Under the pieces are notes generated by a model, which was not told the origin of the DNA, did not search any database, and was given only the letters and a program-made list of their open reading frames with translations. From contig CAYLJX010000001.1 in NCBI GenBank assembly GCA_964384235.1, positions 241,709 to 305,708 of the forward strand: 64,000 bases of DNA, given 5' to 3'. Made by a program: the position numbers and the translations under genes. Position 1 is the stretch's first letter. Each line of letters opens with the position of its first letter. Of this stretch, positions 2,143 through 49,492 are shown piece by piece. This DNA comes from an uncultured Bdellovibrionales bacterium (GTDB taxonomy: Bacteria > Patescibacteriota > Minisyncoccia > Moranbacterales > UBA1568).

Positions 2143-2177
2143 GAGTGAGTAGTGAGTAGTTGATAGTGAGTAGAAAA
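2143..2177 (-). repeat. Tandem heptamer array in hrcA 5' leader (TAGTGAG x5 on + strand; CTCACTA on mRNA)
   Basis: gagtgag tagtgag tagttga tagtgag tagaaaa sits immediately 5' of the hrcA ATG. No Shine-Dalgarno sequence is present. Confidence 0.6.
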
Positions 2178-2192
2178 TGCCTGACTGAATAC

Positions 2193-2221
2193 AGTATAAA
2201 AAATGATTTAGCAGTCGTCAA
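2193..2221 (-). promoter_or_regulatory. Sigma70-like promoter of hrcA operon (TTGACG-17-TATACT), overlapping CIRCE
   Basis: On the minus strand the -35 TTGACG and -10 TATACT are 17 nt apart. The -35 lies inside the CIRCE spacer and right half. Confidence 0.55.
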
Positions 2222-2234
2222 GTATGAGTGCTAA
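2208..2234 (-). promoter_or_regulatory. CIRCE operator (HrcA binding site)
   Basis: Minus strand reads TTAGCACTC-ATACTTGAC-GACTGCTAA. This is the 9-N9-9 inverted repeat matching the CIRCE consensus TTAGCACTC-N9-GAGTGCTAA with one mismatch. Confidence 0.8.
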
Positions 2235-2300
2235 CCATTCAGGGTAAACGAAAGGCTCCGGATGCGTGCTGCGCGAGCGGAGCCTAAGCGGAAGTAGGAT

Positions 2301-2588
2301 TCATTCGATATCCGGAACACTGAAGATATCGGGATAGCGCGAATCCAGAGGGCTTATGCCTTGTCGGATTGCCTCTTCCCGCAGGGCAATGAGCCTAAGA
2401 CCCTTCTCCTGAGTCCTGAAAACAGGGTGGAGTTTCCTGAGTTCCTTCCGGTGCCACTTAGCCAGTTTTTCGTTGGTGCGCAGATGCCATCCGAGATAGG
2501 ATTTCACCGCGTCCTCACCGAAAAGCCTCATGACACTGATTACCGGACCAGGCGGAAGCATGTTGTACAGCAATCTCGTAAAGAACAT
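2301..2588 (-). CDS. Hypothetical protein (~95 aa) downstream of yidD
   Basis: Internal Met (MFFTRLLYNMLPPGP...) of ORF 2301..2774. The upstream part of that ORF overlaps yidD in another frame and is probably not coding. No recognisable family. Confidence 0.3.
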   Translation of the reverse strand: MFFTRLLYNMLPPGPVISVMRLFGEDAVKSYLGWHLRTNEKLAKWHRKELRKLHPVFRTQEKGLRLIALREEAIRQGISPLDSRYPDIFSVPDIE

Positions 2589-2632
2589 CTCACTCTCCTT
2601 CCTTCGATGAAACTTCGATTGGGAAACAGCTA

Positions 2633-2869
2633 TTACGGAACAGGGTCGTAGCCGCCGTCGTTCCAGGGGTGGCAGCGGAGGATACGTCTCAGTCCCAGGT
2701 ACGAACCGCGTATAACGCCGTGCCGTTCGATGGCCTCGTACGTGTACTGCGAGCACGTCGGGTGAAAACGACAAAACCGTTCCCCGAACACCATGCCGAT
2801 GACCCCGTGATCAAACGACAGGGTCTTCTGGTAGAGGCGTATGAGAAAGAGAACTGTTTTCTTCACCAT
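2633..2869 (-). CDS. yidD: Membrane protein insertion efficiency factor YidD
   Basis: Carries the motifs [17 protein letters not shown] and [17 protein letters not shown] characteristic of the YidD/haemolytic-domain family. Start taken at MVKKTVLF within ORF 2633..2917. Confidence 0.75.
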
Positions 2870-2897
2870 TTTTTGAGGATATTCGCTTGGAAAAGCT

Positions 2898-2925
2898 TTG
2901 TCAACAGGATAACGCATGGTATACT
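2898..2925 (+). promoter_or_regulatory. Candidate sigma70 promoter of corA (TTGTCA-16-TATACT)
   Basis: Hexamers read directly from the sequence upstream of the corA ATG at 2959. Confidence 0.45.
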
Positions 2926-2958
2926 TGCATCAAAACAGAGACAAAGAAAAACGGAATC

Positions 2959-3867
2959 ATGAAGATACTCAAGCACAAAACCATCACCTGGATCGATTTC
3001 GAGAATCCAGGCCAGGATGACATCATCTACCTCCAGGAGAACTTCAACATCCATCCTCTCGCGATCGAGGAGCTCGTCACGCCGACCTACCAGCCCAAGG
3101 TCGTCCAGTATGACGGGTGCCTGTTCCTTTCTATCCACATCCCCCTCTTCGACGTGGAGCACCGCACCACCTATCCGGGCGAACTCGATATCATCCTCAC
3201 CAACGACCACCTGATCACGAGCCACAAGCAGAGCATCTATCAGCTTTCGACCTTTCTCGACGAACTCATCAAGAGCGAAGGCAAACGCCGCCTGCACCTG
3301 GAAGACTCCCCGGCCCACCTCCTCCACCGTCTCGTTGAGATTCTCCTCAATTCCTGCTTTCCCAAGCTCAACCACATCGCAGAGAAGCTCGACTTCATCG
3401 AGTCACAGGTCTTCGCCGAGAAGGAAAAAGAGATGGTTTTCGAGATTTCCGTCCTCAAGCGCGATATCCTCAACTTCCGCCGAACGCTCAAACCGCAGCG
3501 TTCCATCTTCGAGTCCATCCTCCAGAAGGATCACCCGTTCATCCCAACCGAGACCAAGATCTACTTCCAGGACCTCATCGGTACCAATATCCGCCTGTGG
3601 AACCTCCTCGAAAGCCAGAAGGAGACCATCGAGGCCCTCGAAGCGACCAACAACTCCCTCCTCTCCAACAAGCTCGACCTCACGATGAAGGTTTTGACCA
3701 TCTTTTCCGCGGTCATGCTCCCCATGACGGCCTATTCCAACATGCTCGCCATGAGCGCGCAGATTCCTTTTGCCAACGTACCCTACGCCTTTTGGATCCA
3801 CGTCGTGATCATGCTGCTCATCTCGCTTATCACCATCACGATCTTCCGGTGGAAGAAGTGGTTCTGA
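2959..3867 (+). CDS. corA: CorA-family magnesium/cobalt transporter
   Basis: Cytoplasmic domain followed by two C-terminal TM helices around a YSNMLAMS motif (a variant of the GMN loop). Start chosen at MKILKHK within ORF 2887..3867. Confidence 0.7.
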   Translation: MKILKHKTITWIDFENPGQDDIIYLQENFNIHPLAIEELVTPTYQPKVVQYDGCLFLSIHIPLFDVEHRTTYPGELDIILTNDHLITSHKQSIYQLSTFLDELIKSEGKRRLHLEDSPAHLLHRLVEILLNSCFPKLNHIAEKLDFIESQVFAEKEKEMVFEISVLKRDILNFRRTLKPQRSIFESILQKDHPFIPTETKIYFQDLIGTNIRLWNLLESQKETIEALEATNNSLLSNKLDLTMKVLTIFSAVMLPMTAYSNMLAMSAQIPFANVPYAFWIHVVIMLLISLITITIFRWKKWF

Positions 3868-3872
3868 CGGGG

Positions 3873-3978
3873 ATGTAGCATGTATCTTGTATCAAGTATC
3901 ACGTATGGCCGCGACACGTCGCGGTTTCTGTTTGCCTTAAATGGCACACTTGATACATAATACCTAATACGTACTACC
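3873..3978. repeat. Palindromic NNGTATC-heptamer element flanking the corA terminator
   Basis: Left arm atgtatcttgtatcaagtatcacgtatg. Right arm cacttgatacataatacctaatacgtac. Each arm is about 4 tandem heptamers, and the arms are mutually inverted around the terminator hairpin. Confidence 0.6.
3906..3932 (+). terminator. Intrinsic terminator after corA
   Basis: Hairpin ccgcgac-ac-gtcgcgg followed by tttctgtttg. Confidence 0.6.
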
Positions 3979-3987
3979 TCAAACGCT

Positions 3988-5397
3988 ATGCGTTTCTACA
4001 ACACCCTCACCAAGCGAAAAGACGAGTTTCAGCCGCTCCATCCGGGCAAAGTCGGCATGTATGTCTGCGGTCCGACGGTCTACGACTATATCCATATCGG
4101 CAATCTCCGCGCGTACGTGTTCGCCGACACCTTACGCCGTGTCCTCGAGGATGCCGGCTATGAGGTACGGCTCATCAAGAACGTCACCGATGTCGGTCAT
4201 CTGACGGCCGACGATATCGCCCAGGGAGACTCCGGCGAGGACAAGGTCGCCCGCAAGGCGGAGGCGGAGCACAAGACGCCCGAGGAGATCGCCGCTTTCT
4301 ATGAAAGCTATTTCCATCAGGCGGAGGACGATATGAATATTGAGCCCGCCCAGTACTTTCCCCGTGCCACCGCCCACGTCAAACAGATGATCGCGCTCAT
4401 CGAGACGCTCATCGACAAGGGGCACGCCTATGAAAAGAACGGCAATGTCTTCCTCGACGTGACGACCTTCCCTGAGTATGGAAGGCTTTCCGGCAACACC
4501 CTGGAAAACCTGCAGGTCGGCGCGCGTCTCGAGGAGCATCCGGACAAGAAGAATCCTTGGGACTTCGCCCTCTGGCTCAAGGCGCCGGAGGGTCACCTCA
4601 TGCGTTGGCCGTCCCCGTGGAGCGAAGGGTATCCCGGCTGGCACATCGAGTGTTCGGCCATGAGTATGGAATACTTAGGCGATACGCTCGATATCCATAC
4701 CGGCGGCGAGGACAATATCTTCCCCCACCATGAGGCGGAGATCGTCCAGTCGGAAGGCGTGACCGGCAAACCCTTTGTCCGATACTTCCTCCATACGCGG
4801 CATATCCTTGTGAACGGCGAAAAGATGTCCAAGTCCAAAGGGAATTTCTACACGCTCGAGGACGTGAAGAATCGCGGCTACTCGCCGATGGATTTCCGGA
4901 TGCTTCTGGTCGCTTCCCACTACCGCACGCAGATGAACTTTACCTGGGAAAGCCTGGAGCAGGCCAAGAAAAACCGTGAAACGATGCTCGCAACGTATCG
5001 GCGTGTCCAAGAGGAGGGAACGAAGCTCCCCGGTGACGCGTTTCTCGGCAAGGAATACCTGGAACGTATCCGCACTACCCTCCAGGACGATCTCAACTCT
5101 CCCGAGGCGCTCGCGGTCGCGCTCGAACTCTGCAAGAAAACCAATACACTCCTCGATGCCAAGGAAGCCGTGAACATCAAGGCGGTCGCCAAGGTTTTTG
5201 AGATCGTCTTCTTTCTCTTCGGACTGAAGATCGAAGAAGAAACCATACCCGAAGAAATCACGCGGCTGGCCGAGGCGCGGGATACCGCCCGCAAGAACAA
5301 GGACTACGCGGAATCCGATCGGCTCCGCGACGAGATCGAGGCGCACGGCTACAAAGTGGAAGACGTCGATGGCGGCTTCCGGGTGAAGAAGGGGTGA
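3988..5397 (+). CDS. cysS: Cysteinyl-tRNA synthetase
   Basis: 469 aa class I aaRS. HIGN motif (YDYIHIGNLRAY), KMSKS motif (GEKMSKSKGNF) and zinc-binding cysteines. Confidence 0.95.
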   Translation: MRFYNTLTKRKDEFQPLHPGKVGMYVCGPTVYDYIHIGNLRAYVFADTLRRVLEDAGYEVRLIKNVTDVGHLTADDIAQGDSGEDKVARKAEAEHKTPEEIAAFYESYFHQAEDDMNIEPAQYFPRATAHVKQMIALIETLIDKGHAYEKNGNVFLDVTTFPEYGRLSGNTLENLQVGARLEEHPDKKNPWDFALWLKAPEGHLMRWPSPWSEGYPGWHIECSAMSMEYLGDTLDIHTGGEDNIFPHHEAEIVQSEGVTGKPFVRYFLHTRHILVNGEKMSKSKGNFYTLEDVKNRGYSPMDFRMLLVASHYRTQMNFTWESLEQAKKNRETMLATYRRVQEEGTKLPGDAFLGKEYLERIRTTLQDDLNSPEALAVALELCKKTNTLLDAKEAVNIKAVAKVFEIVFFLFGLKIEEETIPEEITRLAEARDTARKNKDYAESDRLRDEIEAHGYKVEDVDGGFRVKKG

Positions 5398-5463
5398 AAC
5401 GGGAGGAAAGGGAAGGAAAAGAGTGAAAGAGAAGTAAAGGGAATAACAACACGCAAAAATTAC

Positions 5464-14670: not shown

Positions 14671-14705
14671 CAGTGAACAGCTAACAGGAAACAGTTAACA
14701 GTATT
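14671..14705 (-). repeat. Tandem heptamer array (CAGNNAA x5 on + strand) in the leader of the FtsA-like gene
   Basis: cagtgaa cagctaa caggaaa cagttaa cagtatt lies between the pfkB stop and the FtsA-like ATG. No Shine-Dalgarno sequence. Confidence 0.55.
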
Positions 14706-19472: not shown

Positions 19473-20498
19473 TCATTTCCAAGAAAAGGTCTGGAAACTC
19501 CAATTGAACATCGATCGCACGCTCTCCCACCGGTATTGATCGTCGAGCACCACGGCGACTACCTTGTGCTCCCGGGAAGGATCGGCGGCAACAGCCAAGA
19601 GCGACCGTCCCGCGAGCGGGGTGAACCCGGTCTTCGTCCCGATCAGGTTCGGCATCTGTCCCAAGAGCTCATCCGTATTGAAAATCTCGTGGCTGTAGCG
19701 ACCGTCTATCGAATAGATGTTCTGCTTCTCCATCCGCATCATATCCCAAAGAGTATCGTGCTTCAAGGCTTCGGCGGTGATTCGCGCGATATCGCGGGCG
19801 GACGAATAGCACTCATGCTCGCGACCGTCCGGCTCGAGACCGGAGGGTGTACAGAAGTGCGAATTCTCCAGACCGAGCTCCTTGGCGCGGTCGTTCATGA
19901 TCCTGGCGAAGCCCTCCTGCGTCCTCCCGAGGTGCTTGCCGAGAGCGATCGCCGCGTCATTGGCGCTGTTCATGAGCGCCGCCTTGAGGAGGTCGCGGAC
20001 CGTGAGACGTTCCCCGACCTTGAGGCGTTCGCCGTTGCAGAATCCGGAACGCGGACAGCCGACACGTGTCCCCTCGGCATAGACCGCCTCCTCATCAATG
20101 GTGACGGCCTCATCGAGGTTCCCGATCTGCTCCATGACGATAGTCGCCGTGAAGATCTTGGTGAGTGAAGCGATCTGGCGCCGGTCGTCGGCGTTGTGTC
20201 CATACAGGAGACGCCCCGAATCCGTATCCAGGATGGCCGAGGCATGGGCAGTCGGAACAGCAAAACCGGAAGTCGGATATTTCGGTACCGGCTGGAACGC
20301 TGTCGCCATCTCGCGGCTTTCCGCCACGAACGGCAGGAGTTTTTCCTCCTTCGGTCCATCAAAGCGCCTGGTTTCATCGCTCTCACCCGAAAGCAATGAA
20401 AAAATACCGGCACCGCGCGCTTTCAGTGCGCCGCCGTTCTCCATGACGAACCATCCGAGAACACCAAGGACGATAGTGATACCGAGAAATACTCTCAT
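19473..20498 (-). CDS. dacA: D-alanyl-D-alanine carboxypeptidase (S11 peptidase, PBP5/6-like)
   Basis: Active-site SxxK (ASLTKIF), SxN (SANDAA) and KTG motifs. N-terminal signal/TM segment. Confidence 0.8.
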   Translation of the reverse strand: MRVFLGITIVLGVLGWFVMENGGALKARGAGIFSLLSGESDETRRFDGPKEEKLLPFVAESREMATAFQPVPKYPTSGFAVPTAHASAILDTDSGRLLYGHNADDRRQIASLTKIFTATIVMEQIGNLDEAVTIDEEAVYAEGTRVGCPRSGFCNGERLKVGERLTVRDLLKAALMNSANDAAIALGKHLGRTQEGFARIMNDRAKELGLENSHFCTPSGLEPDGREHECYSSARDIARITAEALKHDTLWDMMRMEKQNIYSIDGRYSHEIFNTDELLGQMPNLIGTKTGFTPLAGRSLLAVAADPSREHKVVAVVLDDQYRWESVRSMFNWSFQTFSWK

Positions 20499-20499
20499 A

Positions 20500-21132: not shown

Positions 21133-21143
21133 AGGGGGAGATT

Positions 21144-21899: not shown

Positions 21900-21907
21900 T
21901 TTTCTTG

Positions 21908-23939: not shown

Positions 23940-23943
23940 AGAT

Positions 23944-30486: not shown

Positions 30487-30509
30487 TTACCAGCCGTTCG
30501 ATTCTCCTC
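30487..30509 (+). repeat. Inverted partial copy of the tRNA-Ala 3' end
   Basis: cgttcgattctcctcaggtc is the reverse complement of plus positions ~30565-30585 inside the tRNA gene, so it forms an inverted repeat around the terminator. Confidence 0.5.
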
Positions 30510-30520
30510 AGGTCATAAAT

Positions 30521-30554
30521 CAAAACTCCTCTGTAAAAAAACAGAGGAGTTTTG
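30521..30554. terminator. Strong stem-loop terminator downstream of tRNA-Ala
   Basis: Perfect hairpin aaaactcctctg-taaaaaaa-cagaggagtttt. Confidence 0.65.
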
Positions 30555-30563
30555 ATTTAGATG

Positions 30564-30634
30564 TGGACCTGAGGAGAATCGAACTCCTGCCTCTGCAATG
30601 CGAATGCAGCGTTGTACCACTTAACTACAGGCCC
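30564..30634 (-). tRNA. Candidate tRNA-Ala (CGC), folded by hand
   Basis: Proposed minus-strand sequence GGGCCTGTAGTTAAGTGGTACAACGCTGCATTCGCATTGCAGAGGCAGGAGTTCGATTCTCCTCAGGTCCA. Acceptor stem carries the G3:U70 alanine identity pair. Anticodon loop TTCGCAT gives anticodon CGC. T-arm GGAGTTCGATTCTCC. The D-stem could not be paired cleanly and the CCA end is not encoded, so this is a candidate that needs a tRNA search. Confidence 0.55.
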
Positions 30635-35408: not shown

Positions 35409-35419
35409 AGCATTGAAGG

Positions 35420-35461
35420 AATAGAGAATATTGAATAAAGAATGAGGAATAAGGAATAAGG
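35420..35461 (-). repeat. Six tandem heptamers (CYTYATT on mRNA; AATNNNG on + strand) filling the secA 5' leader
   Basis: Minus strand reads ccttatt ccttatt cctcatt ctttatt caatatt ctctatt and ends 8 nt before the secA ATG. No Shine-Dalgarno sequence. Confidence 0.65.
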
Positions 35462-35500
35462 AAAAAATCCCTTTCCTGGGCCGTTATATTTTATAGAATA

Positions 35501-36513: not shown

Positions 36514-36542
36514 AGTGTAAAAAATATTAGCACCCAGGTCAA
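36514..36542 (-). promoter_or_regulatory. Sigma70-like promoter of groES (TTGACC-17-TACACT) overlapping CIRCE
   Basis: Same architecture as the hrcA promoter: the -35 lies in the CIRCE spacer. Confidence 0.5.
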
Positions 36543-36553
36543 GTGAGTGCTAA
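36527..36553 (-). promoter_or_regulatory. CIRCE operator upstream of groES
   Basis: Minus strand reads TTAGCACTC-ACTTGACCT-GGGTGCTAA, matching the 9-N9-9 CIRCE consensus with one mismatch. Confidence 0.8.
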
Positions 36554-36562
36554 TACTTTCTG

Positions 36563-41166: not shown

Positions 41167-42752
41167 GACGGATTTCTATCATTTTCCATCATCAACGTTC
41201 CCAAAGCAAGAAACAGGAAAAAGAATCCCAGAAGGATACCGGAGTTGAACATGTTGAACACCGTGATGCCTGCCCAGACGGAAGCGACGAAAAGAAAGAG
41301 CGGCCGCATGTTTTCCTCTCCGCGAAACCATCCGTACACCGCCGCCGCGATCACCGAGAACCAGAAAACGACAAACGCGACCAGTCCGATGAGTCCGCTC
41401 CCGAGCCAAATCTCCAAGAACATATTGCTCGCGTTGAGTCCCGCACCGCGCTCATCAGAACCAAGGAAAGCCGCCGCGCTCCCCCATCCGATACCCAGGA
41501 GAGGGTGTTCCCGTATCAGGCCCCAGACTTTTCCATAGATTTCCTTGCGGATCGAGACGTTGGGGTCGTCACGGACGATTTCCTTCACGAAGTGCCCGGC
41601 AACTTTCTCCGCCTCGATATCCTCCAGATCGATGTGTCGGCAACCGAAAGCGGCAAGCTCCGAGACGTCACCGATCTTTTCCGGGAGCGCGACATCCTGC
41701 CCGCACGAGACCGTGATTCTCTGCAGTCCTGACCCGACACTCTGCACGCGGTTCCCAAGTTGGAACGACGTGAGGTGCAGACCCCATACCAACCCGAGTG
41801 CGATGACAAACGAAACAGCGACCGTCCCGACAAACACCATTCCCTCCCTGATCCGCCGCGAGAGGAGAAGTAATCCAGCAAACGTTACGGCACCGATGAC
41901 CGCCCCCAGCCACGCGCTCCTCGCCACGGTGATGATGAGAACGACAAACGAGAGGATAAGCATGACAGCCATGAGCCATGCCTTCGCATCCCGCATTTTC
42001 CGCATGATACATGATACATGATACATGATACTTCCCTGTTCTTTGGAGAAGAACGTCTGATACGCCAAAACATACATCACACCCAAGACTACGATAACGA
42101 AAAGTCCCAGCCAATCCGCCTCGCTGAACGTGGCGTTCGGCCGTCCGGCCATCACCTGAAAGCTTTCCTGCCCCGCGAGGAACCGCACATTCTGCCACAG
42201 GGCATAGCCAAAAACGACGAGCGAAGAACCGAGAAAAAACGGCAGCACCTGCCTGACATCCTCATACGATCGCAGATAGAGACGGGAGAGGAGATAGATC
42301 AGTCCGAACGACGAAAGTACCAGCGCCTGCTTGAACGCGAGCGCCAGGGACGGAGCGTTGAGACTCGCGAAGAACGCCCCGATCGGCACGAACGCGAGAC
42401 AAAAATCGAACCAGCGGAGACGAAGCGGCGCAAGCGACAGTCTCCCCATGACCAGGCGCACCGCGAGAGCGAGCGAGAGGAGCACGGCGATCCACTGATA
42501 CGGCCGAAGCATCATCCCGAAACCTTCCGGAAGGAGATTGACCGTCTCATAAGGAAGCATCCCGATGAGAAAGAGAAATACCCACCCCGGCCGATAGAGA
42601 GCAAAAAGAAAAGCAACGAATGAAAAGAAAAGAAAATTGACCGGATCAAGCGGCACCACACCAGTGTTTGCGAGCACGATCAACACGACGCCAAGGAAGA
42701 TATTCCCCAGGACAAGCATCAGTTTGTTCTGACTCCACCCGAAAAAATTCAT
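41163..42752 (-). CDS. O-antigen ligase/polymerase-like membrane protein (Wzy_C domain)
   Basis: About 12 TM helices and a periplasmic loop with the Wzy_C pattern (AGLNASNMFLEIWLGSGLIGL). Start overlaps the upstream GT4 stop (ATGA). Contains an in-frame (ATGATAC)x4 tract. Confidence 0.65.
   Translation of the reverse strand: MNFFGWSQNKLMLVLGNIFLGVVLIVLANTGVVPLDPVNFLFFSFVAFLFALYRPGWVFLFLIGMLPYETVNLLPEGFGMMLRPYQWIAVLLSLALAVRLVMGRLSLAPLRLRWFDFCLAFVPIGAFFASLNAPSLALAFKQALVLSSFGLIYLLSRLYLRSYEDVRQVLPFFLGSSLVVFGYALWQNVRFLAGQESFQVMAGRPNATFSEADWLGLFVIVVLGVMYVLAYQTFFSKEQGSIMYHVSCIMRKMRDAKAWLMAVMLILSFVVLIITVARSAWLGAVIGAVTFAGLLLLSRRIREGMVFVGTVAVSFVIALGLVWGLHLTSFQLGNRVQSVGSGLQRITVSCGQDVALPEKIGDVSELAAFGCRHIDLEDIEAEKVAGHFVKEIVRDDPNVSIRKEIYGKVWGLIREHPLLGIGWGSAAAFLGSDERGAGLNASNMFLEIWLGSGLIGLVAFVVFWFSVIAAAVYGWFRGEENMRPLFLFVASVWAGITVFNMFNSGILLGFFFLFLALGTLMMENDRNPS
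42004..42031 (-). repeat. Perfect (ATGATAC)x4 heptamer tract inside the Wzy-like CDS
   Basis: Encodes the peptide ...IMYHVSCIM.... The 28-nt tract sits in frame in an otherwise intact ORF. Changing the copy number by one unit would shift the frame. Confidence 0.7.
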
Positions 42753-43978
42753 ATCGTCATTTCCGAAAAAATCTTCTCCACGAACTTGTCCCAACTGAAT
42801 TGTACAATCTGGGCATGAGATCGGGCAACGAGCCTCTCCCGGAGTGCTTCATCACCGAGCAACCGCTCCATCCCCATGACGATCGAATCAGTATCGTGAG
42901 GATCGCAGTACTGTACCGCTTCACCCCCCACTTCCGGAAGTGATGAATTGTTCGAAGCAAGTACCGGCGTTCCCTTACACATCGCCTCCAAGACCGGCAG
43001 ACCGAACCCCTCGTAAAGCGACGGATAGACAAAGAACACCGCGCCGCGATACAGCGCCAGCAGATCTTCTTCCGGGACGAACCCCAGAAGCTTCACTTTT
43101 TCTTCCAATCCTAATTCCTTCACCAACCCCTCTACATCAGTCGCCAACTTATTTTCTTTCGAAAAAATTTTTCCAGAAATAACAAGAGGTGGGATATCGG
43201 CATTTTTTTGTATCTTGTATCTTGTATCTTGTATCTTTGCTTGAAGCATTGCATATGCTTCAAGCAGTGTCTTGGCATTCTTCCTCACTTCCAATCCCCC
43301 ACCATGATAAATGTAGCCCTGTTCGAGGCCGTACTTTTTCAAAACCGTGTCCACTGTCTCATCAGAGATAACTTCACGGAAACGCGGACTGACATCCGGA
43401 TACGCCACAACGATCCGTTCTTCCGAAAGACCGAGATGCTTCACAAGGTCTTGCTTCGTGGCTTCGGACACCGCGACGATCTGGTCTGCACTTCGGATGC
43501 CCCCCTCCACTGCCTTCCAGTGAAGCCTCTGTGACATCTTGCCTAAATATTCCGGAAACAATTTTGGGATGACATCATGTACGACCATTACATGTTTCAG
43601 CTTGTAGCTGGTAGCTGGTAGCTTGTAGCTTTCAAAAGAAGTTGAAGACTGGTAAAGAGAAAGGAAGACGTCACAGCCGTCGGCAGCGGCGCGCTTGGCG
43701 AGCTCGCGCTCCCAGAGCCACTTCCTCGGCACATCATCACGCTTCCACCACTTCGGGAGAAAACTCTTCACTTCAAAGTTCGCTGGAAGATCAATATTGA
43801 TGGGTTCTTCGGTATACAAAATGTATCTTGTATCTTGTATTTTGTATTTTGTATTCCCTTGATACGTAATACCGGATACATGATACTCGGTTAACTTTTG
43901 TAAAAAGTTAGCCGTTACTTGCCCGATACCGGTTCCGGGCTTTCTCAAAAATGACGCGTTGATACCTATTTTTTTCAT
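42749..43978 (-). CDS. Glycosyltransferase family 1 (GT4-type) carrying three in-frame heptamer-repeat insertions
   Basis: N-terminus MKKIGINASFLRKPGTGIGQVTANF and C-terminus EGFGLPVLEAMCKGTPV. Repeat-encoded segments are YHVSGITYQGNTKYKIQDTRYILY, YKLPATSYKLK and KIQDTRYKIQ. Confidence 0.75.
   Translation of the reverse strand: MKKIGINASFLRKPGTGIGQVTANFLQKLTEYHVSGITYQGNTKYKIQDTRYILYTEEPINIDLPANFEVKSFLPKWWKRDDVPRKWLWERELAKRAAADGCDVFLSLYQSSTSFESYKLPATSYKLKHVMVVHDVIPKLFPEYLGKMSQRLHWKAVEGGIRSADQIVAVSEATKQDLVKHLGLSEERIVVAYPDVSPRFREVISDETVDTVLKKYGLEQGYIYHGGGLEVRKNAKTLLEAYAMLQAKIQDTRYKIQKNADIPPLVISGKIFSKENKLATDVEGLVKELGLEEKVKLLGFVPEEDLLALYRGAVFFVYPSLYEGFGLPVLEAMCKGTPVLASNNSSLPEVGGEAVQYCDPHDTDSIVMGMERLLGDEALRERLVARSHAQIVQFSWDKFVEKIFSEMTI
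43209..43236 (-). repeat. (TGTATCT)x4 tract inside the GT4 CDS
   Basis: Four perfect tandem heptamers that encode KIQDTRYKIQ. Confidence 0.7.
43603..43630 (-). repeat. (KGTAGCT)x4 tract inside the GT4 CDS
   Basis: tgtagct ggtagct ggtagct tgtagct, encoding YKLPATSYKL. Confidence 0.65.
43822..43856 (-). repeat. (TGTATYT)x5 tract inside the GT4 CDS, near the N-terminus
   Basis: tgtatct tgtatct tgtattt tgtattt tgtattc, followed by gatacgtaataccggatacatgatac. Confidence 0.65.
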
Positions 43979-44004
43979 TCTTCTATTGTATCAAGGAAAA
44001 GAAA

Positions 44005-44046
44005 AGTTGAGAAAAGAAAAGCGCCCCCAAGGAAACCTCAGGGGCG
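44005..44046 (-). terminator. Intrinsic terminator ending the minus-strand transcript at 44.05-44.73 kb
   Basis: Minus strand hairpin gcgcccc-13 nt loop-ggggcgc followed by ttttcttttctc. Confidence 0.55.
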
Positions 44047-44413
44047 CGGTGTGTCTACGATGTAGGCGGGCGGACGATCGTCACCGATCAGTCGTGTCGG
44101 CCGGTACACAGATCTCAGCCGTGTAGTACCGACACCGTCGATGGTCGCGATCGTCGAGGGGTTGCGATGTTTCCATGCTTCCTCCTCGGTTGTGCGCGAT
44201 AGGCGGATGGCGCGGCGCTTCCCGACGTTGGGAGGGGCCGATGCCACTGGAGAAGTGCTCCCGGTGGCCTACGCGCGATTCGATGATACTACTTCTCTGC
44301 CGAGACGACCTCGGGGTCCAAAGGACAGGTGGTGAGCTCCAGTCAGCCTTTAGGCAAACTTCCGGAAACCGGACGCACACAGGCGAGACGTTCGCTCCCT
44401 TCCGACAGCAAAG
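44047..44413 (-). ncRNA. Candidate structured RNA (~360 nt), or structured 3' UTR of the 106-aa gene; family unassigned
   Basis: GC-rich (~65%) with no plausible ORF in any frame. Dense in stem-loops such as cttccgac..gtcggaag and gtgtcgg..ccgacac. Bounded by its own terminator and preceded by a strong promoter at 44766-44793. Not tmRNA, RNase P or SRP RNA by motif inspection. Confidence 0.3.
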
Positions 44414-44734
44414 CTATCCGGTCGGAAGCAGGCGCTCCCAAAAGGCCCAGTAGCAGCGGAGCCGCCACATGAAGAATCGGACTTGCCACGACCCCATGAG
44501 TCCCCAGGCGAAGTCCCGCTGTTTCGGGTCTTCGGGAATAGGGAGGATCTGAAAGAGGTTGAGGACAGCCCCATACAGCCCGCCGAAGCCCATGTAGTAC
44601 GCGGCCTTACGAAAAGCGTCACGACGCATCATGGGAGAAAAGCTGCTATTGAGACCATCCTGGATGCAAAGAACCGCTTTGCGGATAGCCACGTCATCGC
44701 TATCCGGACAAACAAGTACCGGTTTCTGTTTCAT
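44414..44734 (-). CDS. Hypothetical small protein (106 aa), Trp-rich C-terminus
   Basis: GGAGGA Shine-Dalgarno 8 nt before the ATG and a TTGCAA-16-TATACT promoter upstream. One hydrophobic segment. No family recognised. Confidence 0.4.
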   Translation of the reverse strand: MKQKPVLVCPDSDDVAIRKAVLCIQDGLNSSFSPMMRRDAFRKAAYYMGFGGLYGAVLNLFQILPIPEDPKQRDFAWGLMGSWQVRFFMWRLRCYWAFWERLLPTG

Positions 44735-44765
44735 CGGAGCTTCCTCCAGAAGGAACTTGCCCTAC

Positions 44766-44793
44766 AGTATACCGCCCGGGAAAATATTTGCAA
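44766..44793 (-). promoter_or_regulatory. Candidate sigma70 promoter (TTGCAA-16-TATACT)
   Basis: Minus strand reads ttgcaaatattttcccgggcggtatact. It drives the 106-aa ORF and the downstream structured region. Confidence 0.5.
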
Positions 44794-44797
44794 ACAC

Positions 44798-45676
44798 CTA
44801 CCGGAACCAGACGATGAGCATGGAGCCTGAGACGAGGAGTGCCGTGCCGATGACGTGGCGCCTCGTCACCTGTTCCCCGAACATCATGATCCCGAGAACC
44901 AGCGCGAAGAACGGCATGACCCGCTTGATGGCAAAGACTTCGCTCGCTTTGGCACTCTCCAGGGCGACCGTCGCCGGGCCGTTTTCGAGGAACGCGATGA
45001 CGAGACCCGCGAGAACCATCACGCCGAGTACTTTGCTCCACTGCCCGCTCATCCGGAGTTCCCGGATCGTCTGTCGTTCGTTGGTAAAAAGCACCAAGAG
45101 GAGAAACCCAAAAGCGATCCCGACATGAAACACTGCCGCCGAGAAAAGACCCGAACCGGACTCCGCCACAGCCACTCCCATGAAGACCGACGTGAAGGAA
45201 TATGAGACGACCGTGACGGCGAAATATCCCGTGACCGCGAGCGCCTCGCGTGACAGCTTCTCCTTGGCCGAAAAGAGGATGGCACCCGCCACGACCACCG
45301 CGATACCGACGATCTGCATCATGGTCGGGAGTGTCCCCCGCACGACGTATTCAAGCGGGACGATGAGGAGCGCCGTGAGCGAGATGAAGGGCATCAGTTT
45401 GGACAGGGCCGCCTTGTCGAGGGCGCGGTAGGCCGTCCAGGCGGCGAGCACGTTGAGGACGATGACCATCGCAGAGGCGAAGAAAAACCTGTTTGAAAGA
45501 TGCCCGACGCTCTCCCCGGACATACCATACCCGACCGCGAGCGCGATCCCTGCCACGGCAAAAGACACGAGACCGAGCGTGTTGTTGACACCCTTCTTCT
45601 CGAGCGACTTCTTCTTGAGCGCCCATCCGAACGCCTGCCCGAACGCGGACAAGAGTGAGAGAAATATCCAACTCAT
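44798..45676 (-). CDS. EamA/DMT-family transporter
   Basis: 292 aa with 10 TM helices and duplicated EamA domains. Confidence 0.75.
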   Translation of the reverse strand: MSWIFLSLLSAFGQAFGWALKKKSLEKKGVNNTLGLVSFAVAGIALAVGYGMSGESVGHLSNRFFFASAMVIVLNVLAAWTAYRALDKAALSKLMPFISLTALLIVPLEYVVRGTLPTMMQIVGIAVVVAGAILFSAKEKLSREALAVTGYFAVTVVSYSFTSVFMGVAVAESGSGLFSAAVFHVGIAFGFLLLVLFTNERQTIRELRMSGQWSKVLGVMVLAGLVIAFLENGPATVALESAKASEVFAIKRVMPFFALVLGIMMFGEQVTRRHVIGTALLVSGSMLIVWFR

Positions 45677-45787
45677 ATAATACTTTTCCTCAGCATATCA
45701 CCCCGACAGACAAAAGAAAAAGGAGAGGTCGGCGTTCCGTTGTTTTGGAACGCGTTCCTCTCCCTGCGAGGGTCGATGCCCTCTGAA

Positions 45788-46564
45788 TCAGACCTTCTTC
45801 GGCATGAACTTGGCAAGCATCATGCCGTGGACGTTGGCCGCGTTGGCCTGCAAGATCAGCTTGTCCGGCGTGCGGTTCGGCGAATGGCCGAAGCACTCCA
45901 GATAGGCTGCCTTGATGCGCGCACCCGTGCCGACGGCGATCAGATGGATCATCACGCCGTGGAGGCCCCACCGCGGAAACGACTCAGTCGTATTCTTGGC
46001 GAAGAACTCCTGGTAGCGCTCGAAGAACACCAGCGCATTCTCGACACGATGCCGTTGGTGGAGGTTGTAGCCCGGCGACTGGATGTAGAACATCCCGTCG
46101 ACACCGGCCATGGCCGCCTGCATGCCACCCCAGAAACGCATCATGTTGCGGTCGTTGTGGTTGGCATCGTGATCGGGAAAGATGATGCTCCCCACCACAC
46201 CGTCGCACTCGCCGCGCTCGATCATGCCGAGATGGCGGATCATGGCGTAGGGTGAGTGTTCGCCGTCGGCGTCCATGCACCCGACCACATCGGCGTCCGA
46301 GTCGGCTCCCCACCTGTAACCGGCGAGAATGTTGCCGGCGTTGCTGAGGTTCTTGGCGTTGTGGCGGACCGTGATCCAGGAGTACACCTCGCTGGCCTGG
46401 TCGAGCACTTCGCGCGTACCGTCGGTCGAGTTGTCGTTGATCAACAGGACCTCCAACTGGTGATCGTGTTGGTCCAAGATGATCTGCACATCGGCGAGCT
46501 CGTTGACGAGACGTTCCGCCGCTTGCGCGACGTTATACGCGGACGAGAAGATGCGGATCTTCAT
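45788..46564 (-). CDS. Glycosyltransferase family 2, DPM1-like soluble polyprenyl-phosphate glycosyltransferase
   Basis: 258 aa GT-A fold (LINDNSTDGT, DADGEH). No C-terminal TM helices. Confidence 0.7.
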   Translation of the reverse strand: MKIRIFSSAYNVAQAAERLVNELADVQIILDQHDHQLEVLLINDNSTDGTREVLDQASEVYSWITVRHNAKNLSNAGNILAGYRWGADSDADVVGCMDADGEHSPYAMIRHLGMIERGECDGVVGSIIFPDHDANHNDRNMMRFWGGMQAAMAGVDGMFYIQSPGYNLHQRHRVENALVFFERYQEFFAKNTTESFPRWGLHGVMIHLIAVGTGARIKAAYLECFGHSPNRTPDKLILQANAANVHGMMLAKFMPKKV

Positions 46565-46642
46565 TTCATGCCCTTCTCCCCTCTAAAGGGGTAAGTAAGT
46601 TGTTCGAGAACTGCTGCCAACACTCATTCATGTTGACCATAT

Positions 46643-46671
46643 AGTATAGCACTTTTTTGATAAAAAGTCAA
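46643..46671 (-). promoter_or_regulatory. Candidate sigma70 promoter for the GT2 gene at 45788-46564 (TTGACT-17-TATACT)
   Basis: Minus strand reads ttgactttttatcaaaaaagtgctatact. Partly palindromic with the plus-strand ttgacc. Confidence 0.5.
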
Positions 46672-46691
46672 TATCAGTCGGAGAGCTTGGT

Positions 46692-46720
46692 TTGCTAATT
46701 TTCGCTCTTTTTCGTACAAT
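46692..46720 (+). promoter_or_regulatory. Candidate sigma70 promoter for the + strand glycan operon (TTGCTA-17-TACAAT)
   Basis: AT-rich island upstream of the dehydrogenase gene; tttgctaattttcgctctttttcgtacaat. Confidence 0.45.
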
Positions 46721-46747
46721 AGAAGCAATATTCTCTAAGGTTTCTCT

Positions 46748-48037
46748 ATGACACAATCAACTCAGAAGACGGTATGCGTGGTCGGTCTCGGGTATGTGGG
46801 TTTGCCTTTGGCTGTCCGTGCCCGGGAACGCGGCTATCGCGTCATCGGCTTCGATACGAACGAGGAAAAGATCACCCTCATCAACGAGGGCAAGAGCCCG
46901 ATCATGGAAGAGTTCCTGGAAACGCGCATAGGACAGTTCCACCCGGAAGCGACCAGCGACCCGGCCATGATCAAGGAAGCCGACATCGTCCTCATCTGCG
47001 TCCCCACTCCGGTCGACGAGATGCGCAATCCCGACTACGGTCCGGTGGAAGACGCCTCGCGTCTCATCGCTTCCAATCTCAAGAAAGGCGCCCTCGTCGT
47101 CCTCGAATCGACCGTCAACCCTGGCGTAAGCGAAGAGATCGTCGCCCCTATCTTCGAAGCGGCCGGTCATACGGTCAGTACCGATGTCTACCTCGCCCAC
47201 TGCCCGGAGCGCATCAATCCCGGTGACAAGAAGTGGAACGTGACCAACATCCCGCGCGTCCTCGGTTCTTTCGACGAAAAGGGGCTCTCGATCGGATTGG
47301 AATTCTACCGCTCCATCGTCGATGCCGAAATCCGCCCGATGAAATCCATCCGCGAAGCCGAAGCGGTCAAGATCCTCGAAAACTCCTTCCGTAACGTGAA
47401 CATCGCTTTCGTCAATGAGCTGGCGCGCTCCTTCGCAAGGCTCGATATCGACGTCAAGGACGTCATCGACGGTGCTGCTACCAAACCGTTTGCCTTCATG
47501 GCCCACTATCCGTCCTGCGGTATCGGCGGCCACTGCATCCCGGTCGATCCGTACTATCTCGTCGAATACGCGAGGAAGACCTCCGACTTCGACCACAAAT
47601 TCCTCTCGCTCGCCCTCGAGATCAACCGCGACATGCCGGTCTATACCGTCGAACTCCTGCAGGATGCGCTGAACGAAGTGAGGCTCCCGATGAACGGCAC
47701 GAAAGTCGCCGTACTCGGTATTGCCTACAAGGCGAACGTCGACGACTCGCGCGAATCGCCGGCGTTCGAGATCATCAAGCATTTGAAAAAGCATCACTGC
47801 CAGGTAGAGACATACGACCCGTACATCCTCAGGGAATCCACCATGAAGAACCTCGATGAGATCCTCGCTGCCTGCGACGCCGCCGTCCTCGTCACCAACC
47901 ACAAGGATTTCGTGGAGAGCGTCACTCCTGAGCTTCTCAAGAAGCACGATATCAAGGTCATCATCGACGGCAAGAACTGCCTCGACAAAGAAGCTTTCAA
48001 ACAGTCAGGGATCGTCTATCACGGGATAGGACGGTGA
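46748..48037 (+). CDS. UDP-sugar (UDP-GlcNAc/UDP-ManNAc) 6-dehydrogenase family
   Basis: 429 aa. N-terminal Rossmann fold (VCVVGLGYVGLPLA), catalytic Cys region and C-terminal domain motif AYKANVDDSRESPA. Confidence 0.85.
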   Translation: MTQSTQKTVCVVGLGYVGLPLAVRARERGYRVIGFDTNEEKITLINEGKSPIMEEFLETRIGQFHPEATSDPAMIKEADIVLICVPTPVDEMRNPDYGPVEDASRLIASNLKKGALVVLESTVNPGVSEEIVAPIFEAAGHTVSTDVYLAHCPERINPGDKKWNVTNIPRVLGSFDEKGLSIGLEFYRSIVDAEIRPMKSIREAEAVKILENSFRNVNIAFVNELARSFARLDIDVKDVIDGAATKPFAFMAHYPSCGIGGHCIPVDPYYLVEYARKTSDFDHKFLSLALEINRDMPVYTVELLQDALNEVRLPMNGTKVAVLGIAYKANVDDSRESPAFEIIKHLKKHHCQVETYDPYILRESTMKNLDEILAACDAAVLVTNHKDFVESVTPELLKKHDIKVIIDGKNCLDKEAFKQSGIVYHGIGR

Positions 48038-48039
48038 TT

Positions 48040-48130
48040 CAGTTGTCCAGCTAACGGGTTAAAAAGTTAACGGGTTAAAGAATACCGATCGGAACTCGTT
48101 AACCCGTGAACCCGTTAACGGAAAAACAGA
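48040..48130. repeat. GTTAAC-containing palindromic element (8-nt periodic arms)
   Basis: Left arm gttaacgg gttaaaaa gttaacgg gttaaag. Right arm cgttaacc cgtgaacc cgttaacg. A second copy follows the small gene at 48381-48472. Confidence 0.55.
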
Positions 48131-48134
48131 ACGT

Positions 48135-48380
48135 ATGTTCGGCATCATCAAGCTCATCATCTGGATCGCGGGGGTGGCGGCTATCGCCTATTTCGCGTTG
48201 CCCTACTTCGGCTATGAGGTGAACCTCAACTATTGGAACGAGCGCAAGGCGGCGTGTCAGGAGAAACTCCAGCAGTGCCAAAAGGATCTCATCAAGACCG
48301 GTCTCGACGGCGCCAAAGAGAAGTGCAATATCCAGTGCGTCGACCCGCAACTGCTGATACGGAAATCCGAAGACAATTAA
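48135..48380 (+). CDS. Hypothetical small membrane protein (81 aa) with 4 Cys in the C-terminal half
   Basis: N-terminal TM helix. Flanked on both sides by copies of the GTTAAC element. Confidence 0.35.
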   Translation: MFGIIKLIIWIAGVAAIAYFALPYFGYEVNLNYWNERKAACQEKLQQCQKDLIKTGLDGAKEKCNIQCVDPQLLIRKSEDN

Positions 48381-48472
48381 TCAGTTAACGAGTTAAAAAG
48401 TTAACGAGTTCGGATACGGAATCCCGGTTTCAACCCGTTAACCCGTGAACCTTTTAACCGTATAACAGAAAA
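48381..48472. repeat. Second copy of the GTTAAC-containing palindromic element
   Basis: cagttaacgagttaaaaagttaacgagtt ... aacccgttaacccgtgaaccttttaaccg. Confidence 0.55.
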
Positions 48473-48475
48473 AAT

Positions 48476-49444
48476 ATGCGCCTCATCGTCAACCTGCCGG
48501 CTTACAATGAAGAAGAGAAGCTCGGAGAAACCATCCACAGGATCCCCCGCCAGTTCGACGGCATCGACGAGGTGCTCGTCCAGGTGATCGATGACGGATC
48601 GCAGGACCGCACCATGGAAGTCGCGAAACAAGCGGGGGCCGATTTTGTCTACACGAACGGCGTCAACCGCGGCATCGGCAAGACGTTCCGTCACGCCGCC
48701 TTCCGTGCGCTCGAGAACGGCGCCGACATCATGGTCAATATCGACGCTGACGGCCAGTTCGATCCACAGGATATTTCCAAGCTCATCGCCCCGATCCTCG
48801 CAAACGAAGTCGACATGGTGAGCGCCGACCGATTCGATCACCTCAAGGCCAAGAACATCCCCTGGGTCAAGGACACGCTGAACCGCCTGGCTGCCAAGCT
48901 CATCGGCAGTTTCATGAACGTCAATATCAAGGACCTCACCTGTGGATTCCGCGCCTATTCTCGCGAGACGCTTCTCAAGCTCAACCTCCCCGGCGACTTC
49001 ACCTACACGCAGGAAACCATCATCGACGCCCTCGGCAAGGATCTCAAGATCCTCTGGGTCCCCGTCGAGGTCACCTATTTCGCCGAGCGCAAGTCGCGCG
49101 TGGTGCGAAGCGTCTGGAAGTACGTCTCTAACAGCTTCCGTCTGATCCTCAAGACCGTCCGCGACGTGCGACCCATGAAGTTCTTCGGCGTGCCGGGACT
49201 CGCCCTCGTCACGCTCGGGGTCACCGTCTTCATCGTCTTCCTCTTTCTCTACTTCCAGGAGTTCAAGATCACCCCGTATCGCAACTACCTCTGGTTTGCG
49301 TCCGTCACCTTCCTCATCGGGCTGCAGTTCCTCATCTTCGCCTTCATCGCCGACATGATCAAGTCGAGCCGCAAGCTGACGGAAGACATGATGTACCAGT
49401 TCAAGAAAGACAAATACAAAAAACAGTCAACAATTAACAGTTAA
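48476..49444 (+). CDS. Glycosyltransferase family 2 with C-terminal TM helices (GtrB/ArnC-like polyprenyl-phosphate glycosyltransferase)
   Basis: GT-A domain (VIDDGSQDRT, DADGQ) plus two C-terminal TM helices, the architecture of bactoprenol-phosphate sugar transferases. Confidence 0.8.
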   Translation: MRLIVNLPAYNEEEKLGETIHRIPRQFDGIDEVLVQVIDDGSQDRTMEVAKQAGADFVYTNGVNRGIGKTFRHAAFRALENGADIMVNIDADGQFDPQDISKLIAPILANEVDMVSADRFDHLKAKNIPWVKDTLNRLAAKLIGSFMNVNIKDLTCGFRAYSRETLLKLNLPGDFTYTQETIIDALGKDLKILWVPVEVTYFAERKSRVVRSVWKYVSNSFRLILKTVRDVRPMKFFGVPGLALVTLGVTVFIVFLFLYFQEFKITPYRNYLWFASVTFLIGLQFLIFAFIADMIKSSRKLTEDMMYQFKKDKYKKQSTINS

Positions 49445-49461
49445 CTTCGGGTCCACGCCTT

Positions 49462-49492
49462 TGTTCTCTGTTTACTGTTAGCTGTTAACTGT
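49462..49492 (+). repeat. Tandem heptamers (CTGTTNN x4) immediately upstream of the GT4 ATG
   Basis: ctgttta ctgttag ctgttaa ctgttat then ATG. No Shine-Dalgarno sequence. The same motif family occurs in the FtsA-like leader. Confidence 0.55.

Follow-up and report, generated by a model that had tools for sequence, protein, structure and literature searches.

Short tandem arrays of 7-nucleotide (nt) units are scattered through the 64-kb stretch of DNA analysed here (64,000 nt of contig CAYLJX010000001.1), referred to below as the window, which has a GC content of ~55% and comes from an uncultured Candidatus Moranbacteria bacterium (Patescibacteria) known from wastewater-type metagenomes. The arrays lie beside or within hrcA, grpE, dnaK, corA, cysS, rpmA, pyrG, pfkB and secA, an FtsA-like gene, a major facilitator superfamily (MFS) gene, orf146, a Wzy_C (O-antigen-ligase-like) gene and glycosyltransferase genes of the GT2 and GT4 families. 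They were first noticed as heptamer arrays filling leaders that lack a Shine-Dalgarno (SD) sequence, and the original prediction read them either as S1-dependent standby or enhancer leaders or as length-variable spacers that tune expression. No class of longer simple repeats is commoner in bacteria than the heptanucleotides. The arrays of the window are a genuine and statistically solid sequence feature and a further example of this known, still unexplained class, new for this phylum; no report of such repeats in Patescibacteria was found in the literature that could be searched. On balance they are probably the product of a lineage-specific proliferation of heptanucleotide simple-sequence repeats (SSRs) that survive where the sequence is unconstrained. 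For the earlier claim the outcome is deflationary, as the arrays are not an SD substitute.

The original gene identities (HrcA, CysS, SecA, MFS, GT4 and the FtsA-like protein, which is FtsA/PilM-like) are correct and agree with Pfam, which also supports GT2. Named homologues of the GT4 and HrcA proteins are from Candidatus Moranbacteria/Moraniibacteriota or Patescibacteria. Contigs identical or 95-99.8% identical to the window were recovered in several independent metagenome assemblies (ENA MUNK22, YANG21 and several Logan runs), and hence the arrays are not an assembly artefact. Comparison loci and contigs carry L-numbers (e.g., L083, L188).

Period-7 arrays in the window

A self-match scan over lags of 4-15 nt, in which a strong array is one with at least 16 matches in 21, found 13 arrays at period 7 in the 64 kb and 0-3 at the other periods, except for the harmonic at 14 (8 arrays). 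Local shuffles give an expectation of 0.1 arrays, and unrelated bacterial loci (1.49 Mb) hold 0.028 arrays per kb, corresponding to 1.8 expected per 64 kb (Poisson P = 7e-8). The relaxed threshold of 15/21 yields 17 arrays, which with the MFS array makes ~18 in the window. Tandem Repeats Finder (TRF) likewise calls the period-7 arrays reported at hrcA, secA, the FtsA-like gene, GT4 and cysS, together with several more. The units belong to the families GTATC/GATAC, AACAG/CTGTT, TAGCTTG/CAAGCTA, GGAATAA and AGTGAGT, and leaders built through amplification of 7-nt units, as originally described, are indeed present.

The period was at first taken to be strictly 7 nt and, while the period-7 excess is real, the units of the MFS array measure 7, 9, 8 and 8 nt, for which TRF calls period 8, and gene ends also carry tandem arrays with other periods, namely 8 (GTTAACnn), 10 and 5 nt. 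Copy numbers were slightly overstated, with ~4 units at hrcA, one of them deviant, where five had been counted. Repeats of other periods include GAAAGGGAAG in ~5 copies directly after the cysS stop codon (5396-5443) and (CTTTT) x5, in sense, in the leader of the GT4 gene at 42749-43978 (43996-44021).

Intergenic sites hold 12 of the ~18 arrays, and spacers make up an estimated 15% or so of the window on a rough gene map. Three attributes of heptanucleotide repeats, namely head-to-tail 7-nt units beyond chance, a non-coding bias and a sporadic distribution among close relatives, were found. A search of viral contigs for GTATCnn x4 gave 58 scattered matches, and Rfam at the gathering threshold identified only tRNA-Ala in the window and no known RNA family for the arrays.

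Positions relative to genes

The arrays, originally described in leaders, are not confined to them, and equal numbers are found after stop codons and within coding sequence. Six to seven adjoin a start codon (hrcA, cysS, the FtsA-like gene, MFS, secA, the GT4 gene beginning at 49494 and, loosely, dnaK), ~6 adjoin or overlap a stop codon (grpE, corA, rpmA, pyrG, GT2 and pfkB), and six are intragenic and in frame (the SecA linker, the Wzy_C gene, orf146 and three sites in the GT4 gene 42749-43978). Among 66 arrays of the clade, classified with some noise on a crude map of open reading frames (ORFs), stop-adjoining arrays are at least as common as start-adjoining ones, and the ends are typically found at -6 to +12 nt relative to an ATG or at -16 to +16 nt relative to a stop codon. 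The features of the leaders and coding sequences are as follows (UTR, untranslated region).

2144-2173, minus strand: unpaired array in the hrcA 5' UTR, sense CTACTCA x ~4 (TRF AGTGAGT x4.3), with promoter and CIRCE upstream of it and the ATG 5 nt downstream
2193-2233, minus strand: predicted hrcA promoter TTGACG-17-TATACT (consensus scan), overlapping a CIRCE-like operator; kept in relatives
14671-14704, minus strand: unpaired array that takes up the FtsA-like 5' UTR, sense CTGTTnn x4.6 (TRF 14671-14702), preceded by an extended -10 box, TGgTACAAT, and followed by the ATG
23093-23134, minus strand: MFS leader array, TAGCTTn x4, units of 7-9 nt; relatives have a promoter and an A-rich short leader there
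35416-35470, minus strand: unpaired array in the secA 5' UTR, sense CCTTATT-like x7-8, ending 7 nt before the ATG (TRF 35419-35467, x7.0)
23350-23386, minus strand: in-frame array in orf146, CTGACCC x5 on the plus strand; orf146 is conserved and called in L121
32864-32896, minus strand: in-frame array in secA, encoding GNQQSTTNSQQG, part of the variable linker that precedes the SEC-C zinc motif
41996-42041, minus strand: in-frame array in the Wzy_C gene, perfect CATGATA x4
43200-43244, minus strand: in-frame array in the GT4 gene 42749-43978, perfect TTGTATC x4.3, encoding KIQDTRYKIQ in a variable loop
43588-43637, minus strand: in-frame array in the same GT4 gene, AGCTTGT x4.7, encoding SYKLPATSYKL; orthologous array in L084
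43813-43862, minus strand: in-frame array in the same GT4 gene, TGTATyT x4.9, encoding KYKIQDTRY; ATAC-core array in the same loop of L083 and L084

Placement directly before the ATG stands for hrcA, cysS, the FtsA-like gene, secA and GT4, where the arrays end 0-7 nt away; at MFS the array ends 14 nt before the ATG (TTAGAAAAACAAAA). It fails for dnaK, whose arm is ~50 nt distant.

The coding arrays of the GT4 loops and the SecA linker appear as insertions of 9-11 amino acids. In an alignment of 26 GT4 homologues the three GT4 array sites are exactly the three length-variable loops, in which homologues carry other heptamer-derived peptides, such as TVNSQQST, the translation of (CAACAGT)n. In L083 and L084 arrays are likewise present in the orthologous loops, partly with the same ATAC or ACAAGCT core and partly with a different one.

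CIRCE-type inverted repeats (TTAGCACTC-N9-GAGTGCTAA-like) are found upstream of hrcA (2207-2233) and groES (36521-36559), and on this sequence evidence a classical HrcA regulon is present. The hrcA CIRCE of the window has a degenerate right half-site, while that of strain L188 is perfect.

Mirror-image pairs

Eight of the 12 intergenic period-7 arrays form four mirror-image pairs, three of the type GTATCnn...nnGATAC (grpE/dnaK, corA/cysS and rpmA/pyrG) and one of the type AACAGnn...CTGTTnn (GT2/GT4). Two further pairs have period 8.

844-880, minus strand: 5' arm of the grpE-dnaK pair, mRNA sense GTATCnn x5, starting 2-3 nt past the grpE stop; pair z = -3.0
792-830, minus strand: 3' arm of the grpE-dnaK pair, mRNA sense nnGATAC x5, ending ~50 nt before the dnaK ATG (739-741)
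3870-3906, plus strand: left arm of the corA/cysS pair, GTAgC/GTATCnn x5, starting 6 nt past the corA stop
3907-3934, plus strand: predicted corA intrinsic terminator in the pair loop, stem 3907-3926 plus T tail
3945-3981, plus strand: right arm of the corA/cysS pair, nnGATAC x4-5 (TRF 3953-3979, x3.9), ending 6 nt before the cysS ATG; pair z = -3.5
23943-23975, plus strand: left arm of the rpmA/pyrG pair, nnGTATy x4, directly after the stop of rpmA (L27)
23976-24007, both strands: predicted bidirectional intrinsic terminator AAAAAACCGGCctcaGCCGGTTTTTT in the pair loop, between the convergent rpmA and pyrG; orthologous terminators in relatives
24008-24037, plus strand: right arm of the rpmA/pyrG pair, nnrATAC x4, adjoining the pyrG stop
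48038-48131, plus strand: period-8 GTTAACnn mirror pair, between the UDP-glucose dehydrogenase stop and the orf81 ATG; z = -3.7
48381-48470, plus strand: second period-8 GTTAACnn mirror pair, between the orf81 stop and the GT2 ATG; z = -3.1
49412-49445, plus strand: left arm of the GT2/GT4 pair, AACAGnn, overlapping the GT2 3' end and stop codon
49458-49493, plus strand: right arm of the GT2/GT4 pair, CTGTTnn x4, ending at the GT4 ATG at 49494 (TRF 49468-49494, CTGTTAA x3.9); pair z = -2.7

Each of the six pairs is predicted to fold more stably than its shuffles (z values of -2.7 to -8.7), the strongest being the 20-bp rpmA/pyrG stem (z = -8.7 on the plus strand and -5.7 on the minus strand). 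The arms occupy the space from the coding ends to the central loop, and the loops of the three GTATC pairs are mutually unrelated. As rpmA and pyrG are convergent, their pair is unrelated to any 5' leader. In the L083/L196 genome, units of the GTTAACnn family are also found on either side of a 23S_rRNA_IVP (PF05635) gene, which is an insertion between grpE and dnaK (L196 5282-5976).

Translation starts and leaders

The arrays were originally contrasted with five genes that have GGAGG-type SD sequences (8098, 31229, 44734, 27732 and 5795). These five are genuine, and none of the seven array leaders has an SD core; in this genome, however, the absence of an SD is general. A 4-nt SD core at -20 to -4 precedes 8 of 54 predicted starts, compared with 18% of random 17-nt windows, and the gene calls of the source databases give the same picture; the genome-wide SD rate is ~15-35%. 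Because SD-poor starts are the norm, zero of seven is not a meaningful contrast, and no link between array presence and SD absence is seen beyond that norm.

The same is found in relatives. None of 30 FtsA-like orthologues has an SD. In the majority an extended -10 box (TGgTATAAT) precedes the ATG by only 10-30 nt, and the TGgTACAAT box upstream of the array in the window is homologous to it. The orthologous MFS and hrcA leaders in relatives have promoters 8-30 nt from the ATG and no SD. Judged from these sequences, SD-independent, near-leaderless initiation is the norm in this lineage, and the occurrence of TATAAT 10-25 nt before the ATG in many orthologues suggests that near-leaderless mRNAs are widespread in the clade. 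Such starts, typical of these Patescibacteria, matter both for gene calling and for ideas on translation initiation.

Location of the arrays within 5' UTRs agrees with the promoters predicted upstream of the array at hrcA and the FtsA-like gene, while the predicted cysS -10 box, CATAAT (3956-3961), falls within the right arm of the corA/cysS pair, so that the cysS leader would hold only ~2 units. The arrays are not themselves promoters, as the consensus scan puts promoters upstream of the hrcA array and only the cysS -10 box falls in an array. The leaders were also expected to be unstructured. Array leaders do fold weakly alone (-4.5 to -10.9 kcal/mol, z ~0), but no more weakly than shuffles, and in the paired arrays of cysS and GT4-49494 base-pairing between the start-proximal arm and the other arm is predicted, the reverse of an unstructured standby site. 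The start-proximal arrays of the window are G-poor, with ~10% G in sense. A shared sense-strand composition was rejected, as these arrays are C/U-rich in the window and U/G-rich in L083.

Turnover and stability

Among 35 related loci (67-88% FtsA-like identity) arrays are present in ~10 and absent from more than 15, including many loci of 21 kb; L001 and L002 have none. L083 and L084 (GT4 identity 63-66%) have four strong arrays each per 21 kb, with period 7 only. Several orthologous sites are occupied by different units. The hrcA leader has CTACTCA in the window, TTGTTnn in L194 and GATACAT/AATACCG in L196, and is also replaced in L195, while the cysS leader has three different unit types across relatives. 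The FtsA-like leader has CTGTTnn in the window, and in relatives the pairs AAAGTTn/AACTTTn (L109/L118), CATGGAA/TTCCATG (L115), CACAGAA/TTCTGTG (L111) and TCAAAAT/ATTTTGA (L105); most others have none, including L086/L114, whose FtsA-like identity is 87%. At the junction of the FtsA-like gene with the next gene, the mirror pairs of L114 and L088, which share 89% nucleotide identity, are made of unrelated units, and the window and L086 have no pair.

In L188-L192, compared over window 2130-2630 and ~95% identical in flanking genes, CIRCE, TTGACA and TATACT are followed by 8 nt to the hrcA ATG without any array, which by sequence would be a leaderless-type arrangement. This is the one array presence/absence difference seen between strains. 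The wider yidD-hrcA region also differs, with orf95 only in the window type and not in L188-L192, and therefore either state of the hrcA leader, array or none, may be ancestral. On these comparisons the arrays are dispensable and turn over fast.

No variation in unit number was found in seven arrays (23093-24041 and 41996-43862) across eleven contigs (L081, L082 and L121-L129) from independent samples, which are 97-100% identical overall and essentially undiverged around the arrays. Strain divergence is mosaic, with dense tracts (up to 5-9%, mainly at third codon positions) alternating with long identical stretches (window 19658-27939, 218-4664 and 42599-46988 compared with L081, L122, L124 and L188), which indicates, at the level of sequence, frequent homologous recombination in this population. 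Because the tracts lie within genes, unchanged arrays are not proof of purifying selection. The strain comparison was consequently rejected as a test of such selection, and zero array changes are read as stable copy number only.

A miniature inverted-repeat transposable element or other mobile element was considered and rejected, as neither the window nor the 196 loci compared contained another copy of the hrcA insert and the loops of the pairs are unrelated. Arrays and mirror pairs also occur in unrelated control loci, L029 (a metagenome-assembled genome of Hydrogenedentota, 11 in 13 kb), L055 (Peribacteria) and L068 (Holophagae), and hence the phenomenon is sporadic across phyla.

Relation to known repeats

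Hairpin elements in intercistronic and 3' regions are familiar from the repetitive extragenic palindromic and bacterial interspersed mosaic elements (REP/BIME) of enterobacteria, and the Rickettsia palindromic elements also occur in frame at tolerant protein sites. These are multi-copy and conserved over their full length, whereas the arrays of the window share only a 4-5-nt core, and no copies sharing the full length including the loop were found. Nor was a difference in unit number seen among close strains, as in phase-variable SSRs. For the long simple sequence repeats (LSSRs) of prokaryotes, including the short tandemly repeated repetitive (STRR) sequences of cyanobacteria (Calothrix/Nostoc), the likeness lies in tandem 7-nt units, few copies, intergenic bias, sporadic occurrence and genome-specific units, and the difference in the patescibacterial host, the several coexisting families, the frequent mirror pairs and 4-8 units as against tens of copies. 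Read on the opposite strand, the window unit (CTGTTGA)n becomes CAACAGT, which we take to be STRR3.

As summarized in later papers, simple repeats with units of 5-11 nt are in many bacteria most often heptanucleotides, for which slippage related to the polymerase footprint has been hypothesized (Mrazek 2007, via PMC4679880 and PMC4692102). The closest precedent for the original prediction is a Beggiatoaceae genome with 169 sets of TAACTGA x2-6, most of which end a few nt from SD-less starts (MacGregor 2015, PMC4679880), and for which S1, Csp or CsrA were proposed as readers (PMC4679880), an idea near-identical to the original one. In both cases heptamers end near starts, SD sequences are rare, some copies lie over upstream stops or at protein termini, and the downstream genes have no distinctive functional class; the window unit CTGTTAA corresponds to TAACTGT, one base off TAACTGA. 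However, the Beggiatoaceae repeats have one dominant heptamer, with 132 of 170 sets forward upstream of starts and a single inverted pair (PMC4679880), while in the window there are at least five families, none of them TAACTGA as a single dominant unit, about one-third of the arrays are start-proximal (6-7 of ~18, in SD-less leaders), and 8 of 12 intergenic arrays are in mirror pairs.

The heptamers of Xanthomonas (GGGAATC) and Nostoc (GGGGAYT) lie near ORF starts and ends, with ~4 units preferred and some inverted pairs (Rehm 2015, PMC4692102). Related species have them at the same intergenic positions, where they vary in length and sequence, and no regulatory role was found for them (PMC4692102). 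The intergenic sites near ORF ends, the ~4 units and the inverted pairs all resemble the window, but the Xanthomonas and Nostoc units are G-rich and form quadruplexes, while those of the window are A/T-rich with at most 1-2 G, which makes a quadruplex impossible.

Origin of the arrays

The proposed sequence of events begins with local amplification, probably through replication errors (strand slippage or template switching) that have a step of 7 nt, which would produce short arrays of 3.5-8 units, each genome having a few unit families. Arrays would persist only at free sites, between transcription start and ATG and between stop codon and terminator, and also as mirror pairs that lengthen hairpins across spacers and in frame in disordered protein loops. 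As initiation is mostly without an SD, and often on leaderless or short-leader mRNAs, there would be no element beside the ATG for an insertion to break, and it is proposed that an array inserted there destroys nothing. In leaders the arrays would add 30-50 nt of G-poor, weakly structured RNA that is tolerated, perhaps mildly helpful, and no dedicated signal. Support comes from the specificity and excess of period 7, the spread of locations over starts, stops and gene interiors, the SD-less norm, the dispensability of the arrays and the turnover at the same sites, and also from the match of coding arrays to the length-variable GT4 loops and the SecA linker and from the sporadic occurrence of the phenomenon in unrelated phyla. 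With small genomes, many related assemblies and same-site gain, loss and replacement over 5-15% divergence, this lineage is a tractable comparative system, to which the clear mirror-pair architecture and the arrays fixed in frame in protein loops add further use.

Several observations weigh against this origin. In the 27 units of six GTATC-type arrays, GTA is invariant (27/27) and the fourth base is T in 25/27, while the other three positions are free. In 31 imperfect arrays of the clade the mismatches cluster in three adjacent columns (0.79, compared with 0.72 expected from a null that reproduces the array-detection step and so allows for detection bias; z = 3.2); an excess of fully invariant columns in the same arrays is not significant (p = 0.13). 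A fixed 4-5-nt core with variation concentrated in 2-3 adjacent positions is not predicted by pure slippage followed by random decay. The GTAT/ATAC core occurs in 9 of the ~18 arrays, with ATAC again in L083, L084, L110, L111 and L115, and the CTGTT and TAGCTTG families are each found at a minimum of two unrelated loci, coding and non-coding; a core shared across loci implies that arrays were copied from one locus to another or that the motif is under selection. In L188, 10 of 40 positions in the left arm of the corA/cysS pair are changed and the right arm is identical, yet the folding energy is -39.3 versus -39.2 kcal/mol, while random sets of 10 substitutions give -32.3 +/- 3.7 kcal/mol and only 5% match the stability of L188. 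The arms also lie very close to stop and start codons. Finally, the proposed mutational steps are not observed, and the 7-nt step size is unaccounted for. These misfits of a neutral model leave three options to be kept open, copying between loci, selection for hairpins and a reader protein.

The alternative that survives best, itself unlikely as a full account, is that the mirror pairs are functional RNA hairpins, serving as intercistronic stabilizers, processing sites or terminator extensions, or in translation coupling, and that heptamer duplication is merely the easiest way to lengthen both arms. In the coupling version the base of the stem would join a stop to the next start, so that the terminating ribosome melts the stem and frees or reaches the next AUG. 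This is consistent with the folding of six out of six pairs beyond shuffles, with the complementarity of variable unit positions between the rpmA/pyrG arms, where all three arm differences are G-U-compatible on the plus strand, and with the retained stability in L188 after 10 one-arm changes (p ~0.05). At four of five same-direction junctions the arms are 0-14 nt from the stop and start codons, and the architecture recurs with unrelated units in relatives and other phyla. The exception among the junctions is the grpE-dnaK 3' arm, which stops ~50 nt short of the ATG. Moreover, a canonical terminator lies in the loop of two pairs, so that normal transcripts would carry one arm only, orthologous junctions of close relatives have no pair, and inverted repeats fold well by construction. 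The unpaired leader arrays and the coding arrays are left unaccounted for.

It is doubtful that a multimeric nucleic-acid-binding protein uses the arrays as its platform, with a short core read in a fixed 7-nt register and a post-transcriptional regulon as the result. As a reader one could think of a protein of the cold-shock-domain or S1 type, or of a ring protein such as HutP, which reads UAG-N4 x3. A period of exactly 7, an invariant 4-5-nt core with a variable spacer, one core common to many loci of one genome and the position of arrays near start codons would all suit such a reader, and S1, Csp and CsrA were proposed in the same way for the TAACTGA repeats (PMC4679880). Against it, at least five unrelated cores coexist within the same 64 kb, the arrays are found in either orientation, within coding loops and downstream of stop codons, orthologous sites have different cores in relatives at 89-95% identity, and many close relatives have no arrays. 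No candidate protein was identified, and no search aimed at one was made.

A related reading treats the arrays, and especially the stop-to-start mirror pairs, as a functional device of an SD-poor, leaderless-dominated translation system, which we consider improbable. The device would act either through the recruitment of a protein that reads a 4-5-nt core per 7 nt or through folding that hands the terminating ribosome to the next AUG, and units would be replaceable provided that register and pairing are kept.

Less credible again is the first of the two original readings, in which the arrays serve as dedicated S1-dependent standby or enhancer leaders in place of the SD. Arrays do lie in predicted 5' UTRs and mostly end 0-7 nt from the ATG (14 nt at MFS), their leaders are G-poor, SD-less and weakly folded, and the hypothesis has a precedent in the Beggiatoaceae TAACTGA repeats (PMC4679880). 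A leader-specific stand-in for the SD is nonetheless contradicted by the general absence of the SD, with or without arrays, by close relatives that have the same genes on leaderless or short leaders without arrays, and by the location of about two-thirds of the arrays outside leaders, after stops, around terminators and in proteins. Paired arrays would also sequester the start region, and the U/G-rich start-proximal arrays of L083, not C/U-rich, leave no shared composition.

The second original reading, length-variable spacers, can be extended to changes in unit number that tune or switch expression, through spacers in leaders and frameshift switches in the GT4 and Wzy genes, and it is very unlikely. 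The only perfect arrays (100%, ~4 units) do sit in the Wzy_C and GT4 surface-glycan genes (41996-42041 and 43200-43244), typical targets of phase variation, where, 7 not being divisible by 3, a one-unit change would shift the reading frame, and 7-bp repeats are known to tune the hmw promoters of Haemophilus influenzae. No variation of these perfect arrays was seen in two strain contigs, however, and the eleven near-identical contigs show no change in unit number in seven arrays; the intergenic arrays are degenerate and short (4-5 units), the coding arrays are in frame with peptides conserved across species at 54-68% identity, and the housekeeping genes hrcA, secA and cysS are among the targets.

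Other features of the window

The left end of the window is, from its sequence, a classical hrcA-grpE-dnaK operon on the minus strand. ORF 28-828 on the plus strand matches only PF10712 (NAD-GH), an artefact family antisense to dnaK, and the true gene beneath it is dnaK at 1-741 on the minus strand. A protein look-up for GrpE gave no match, and a contig search anchored on SecA returned only distant relatives among the matches listed, the best at 65%.

Three further sites were noted. A large inverted repeat at 29554-29728 (65-nt arms, 74% complementary, 45-nt loop), in a region without a confident gene, may represent a structured RNA or else a small palindromic element. At 30491-30589, beside the tRNA-Ala gene (30563-30634), the 3' part of tRNA-Ala is repeated in inverted orientation (24 nt, 92%) and a perfect hairpin of 19 bp is present, which could be an integration scar or a terminator. 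The segment 44000-44400, between GT4-409 and orf106, is GC-rich, with no confident ORF and no Rfam match at the gathering threshold, and could be a divergent structured RNA.

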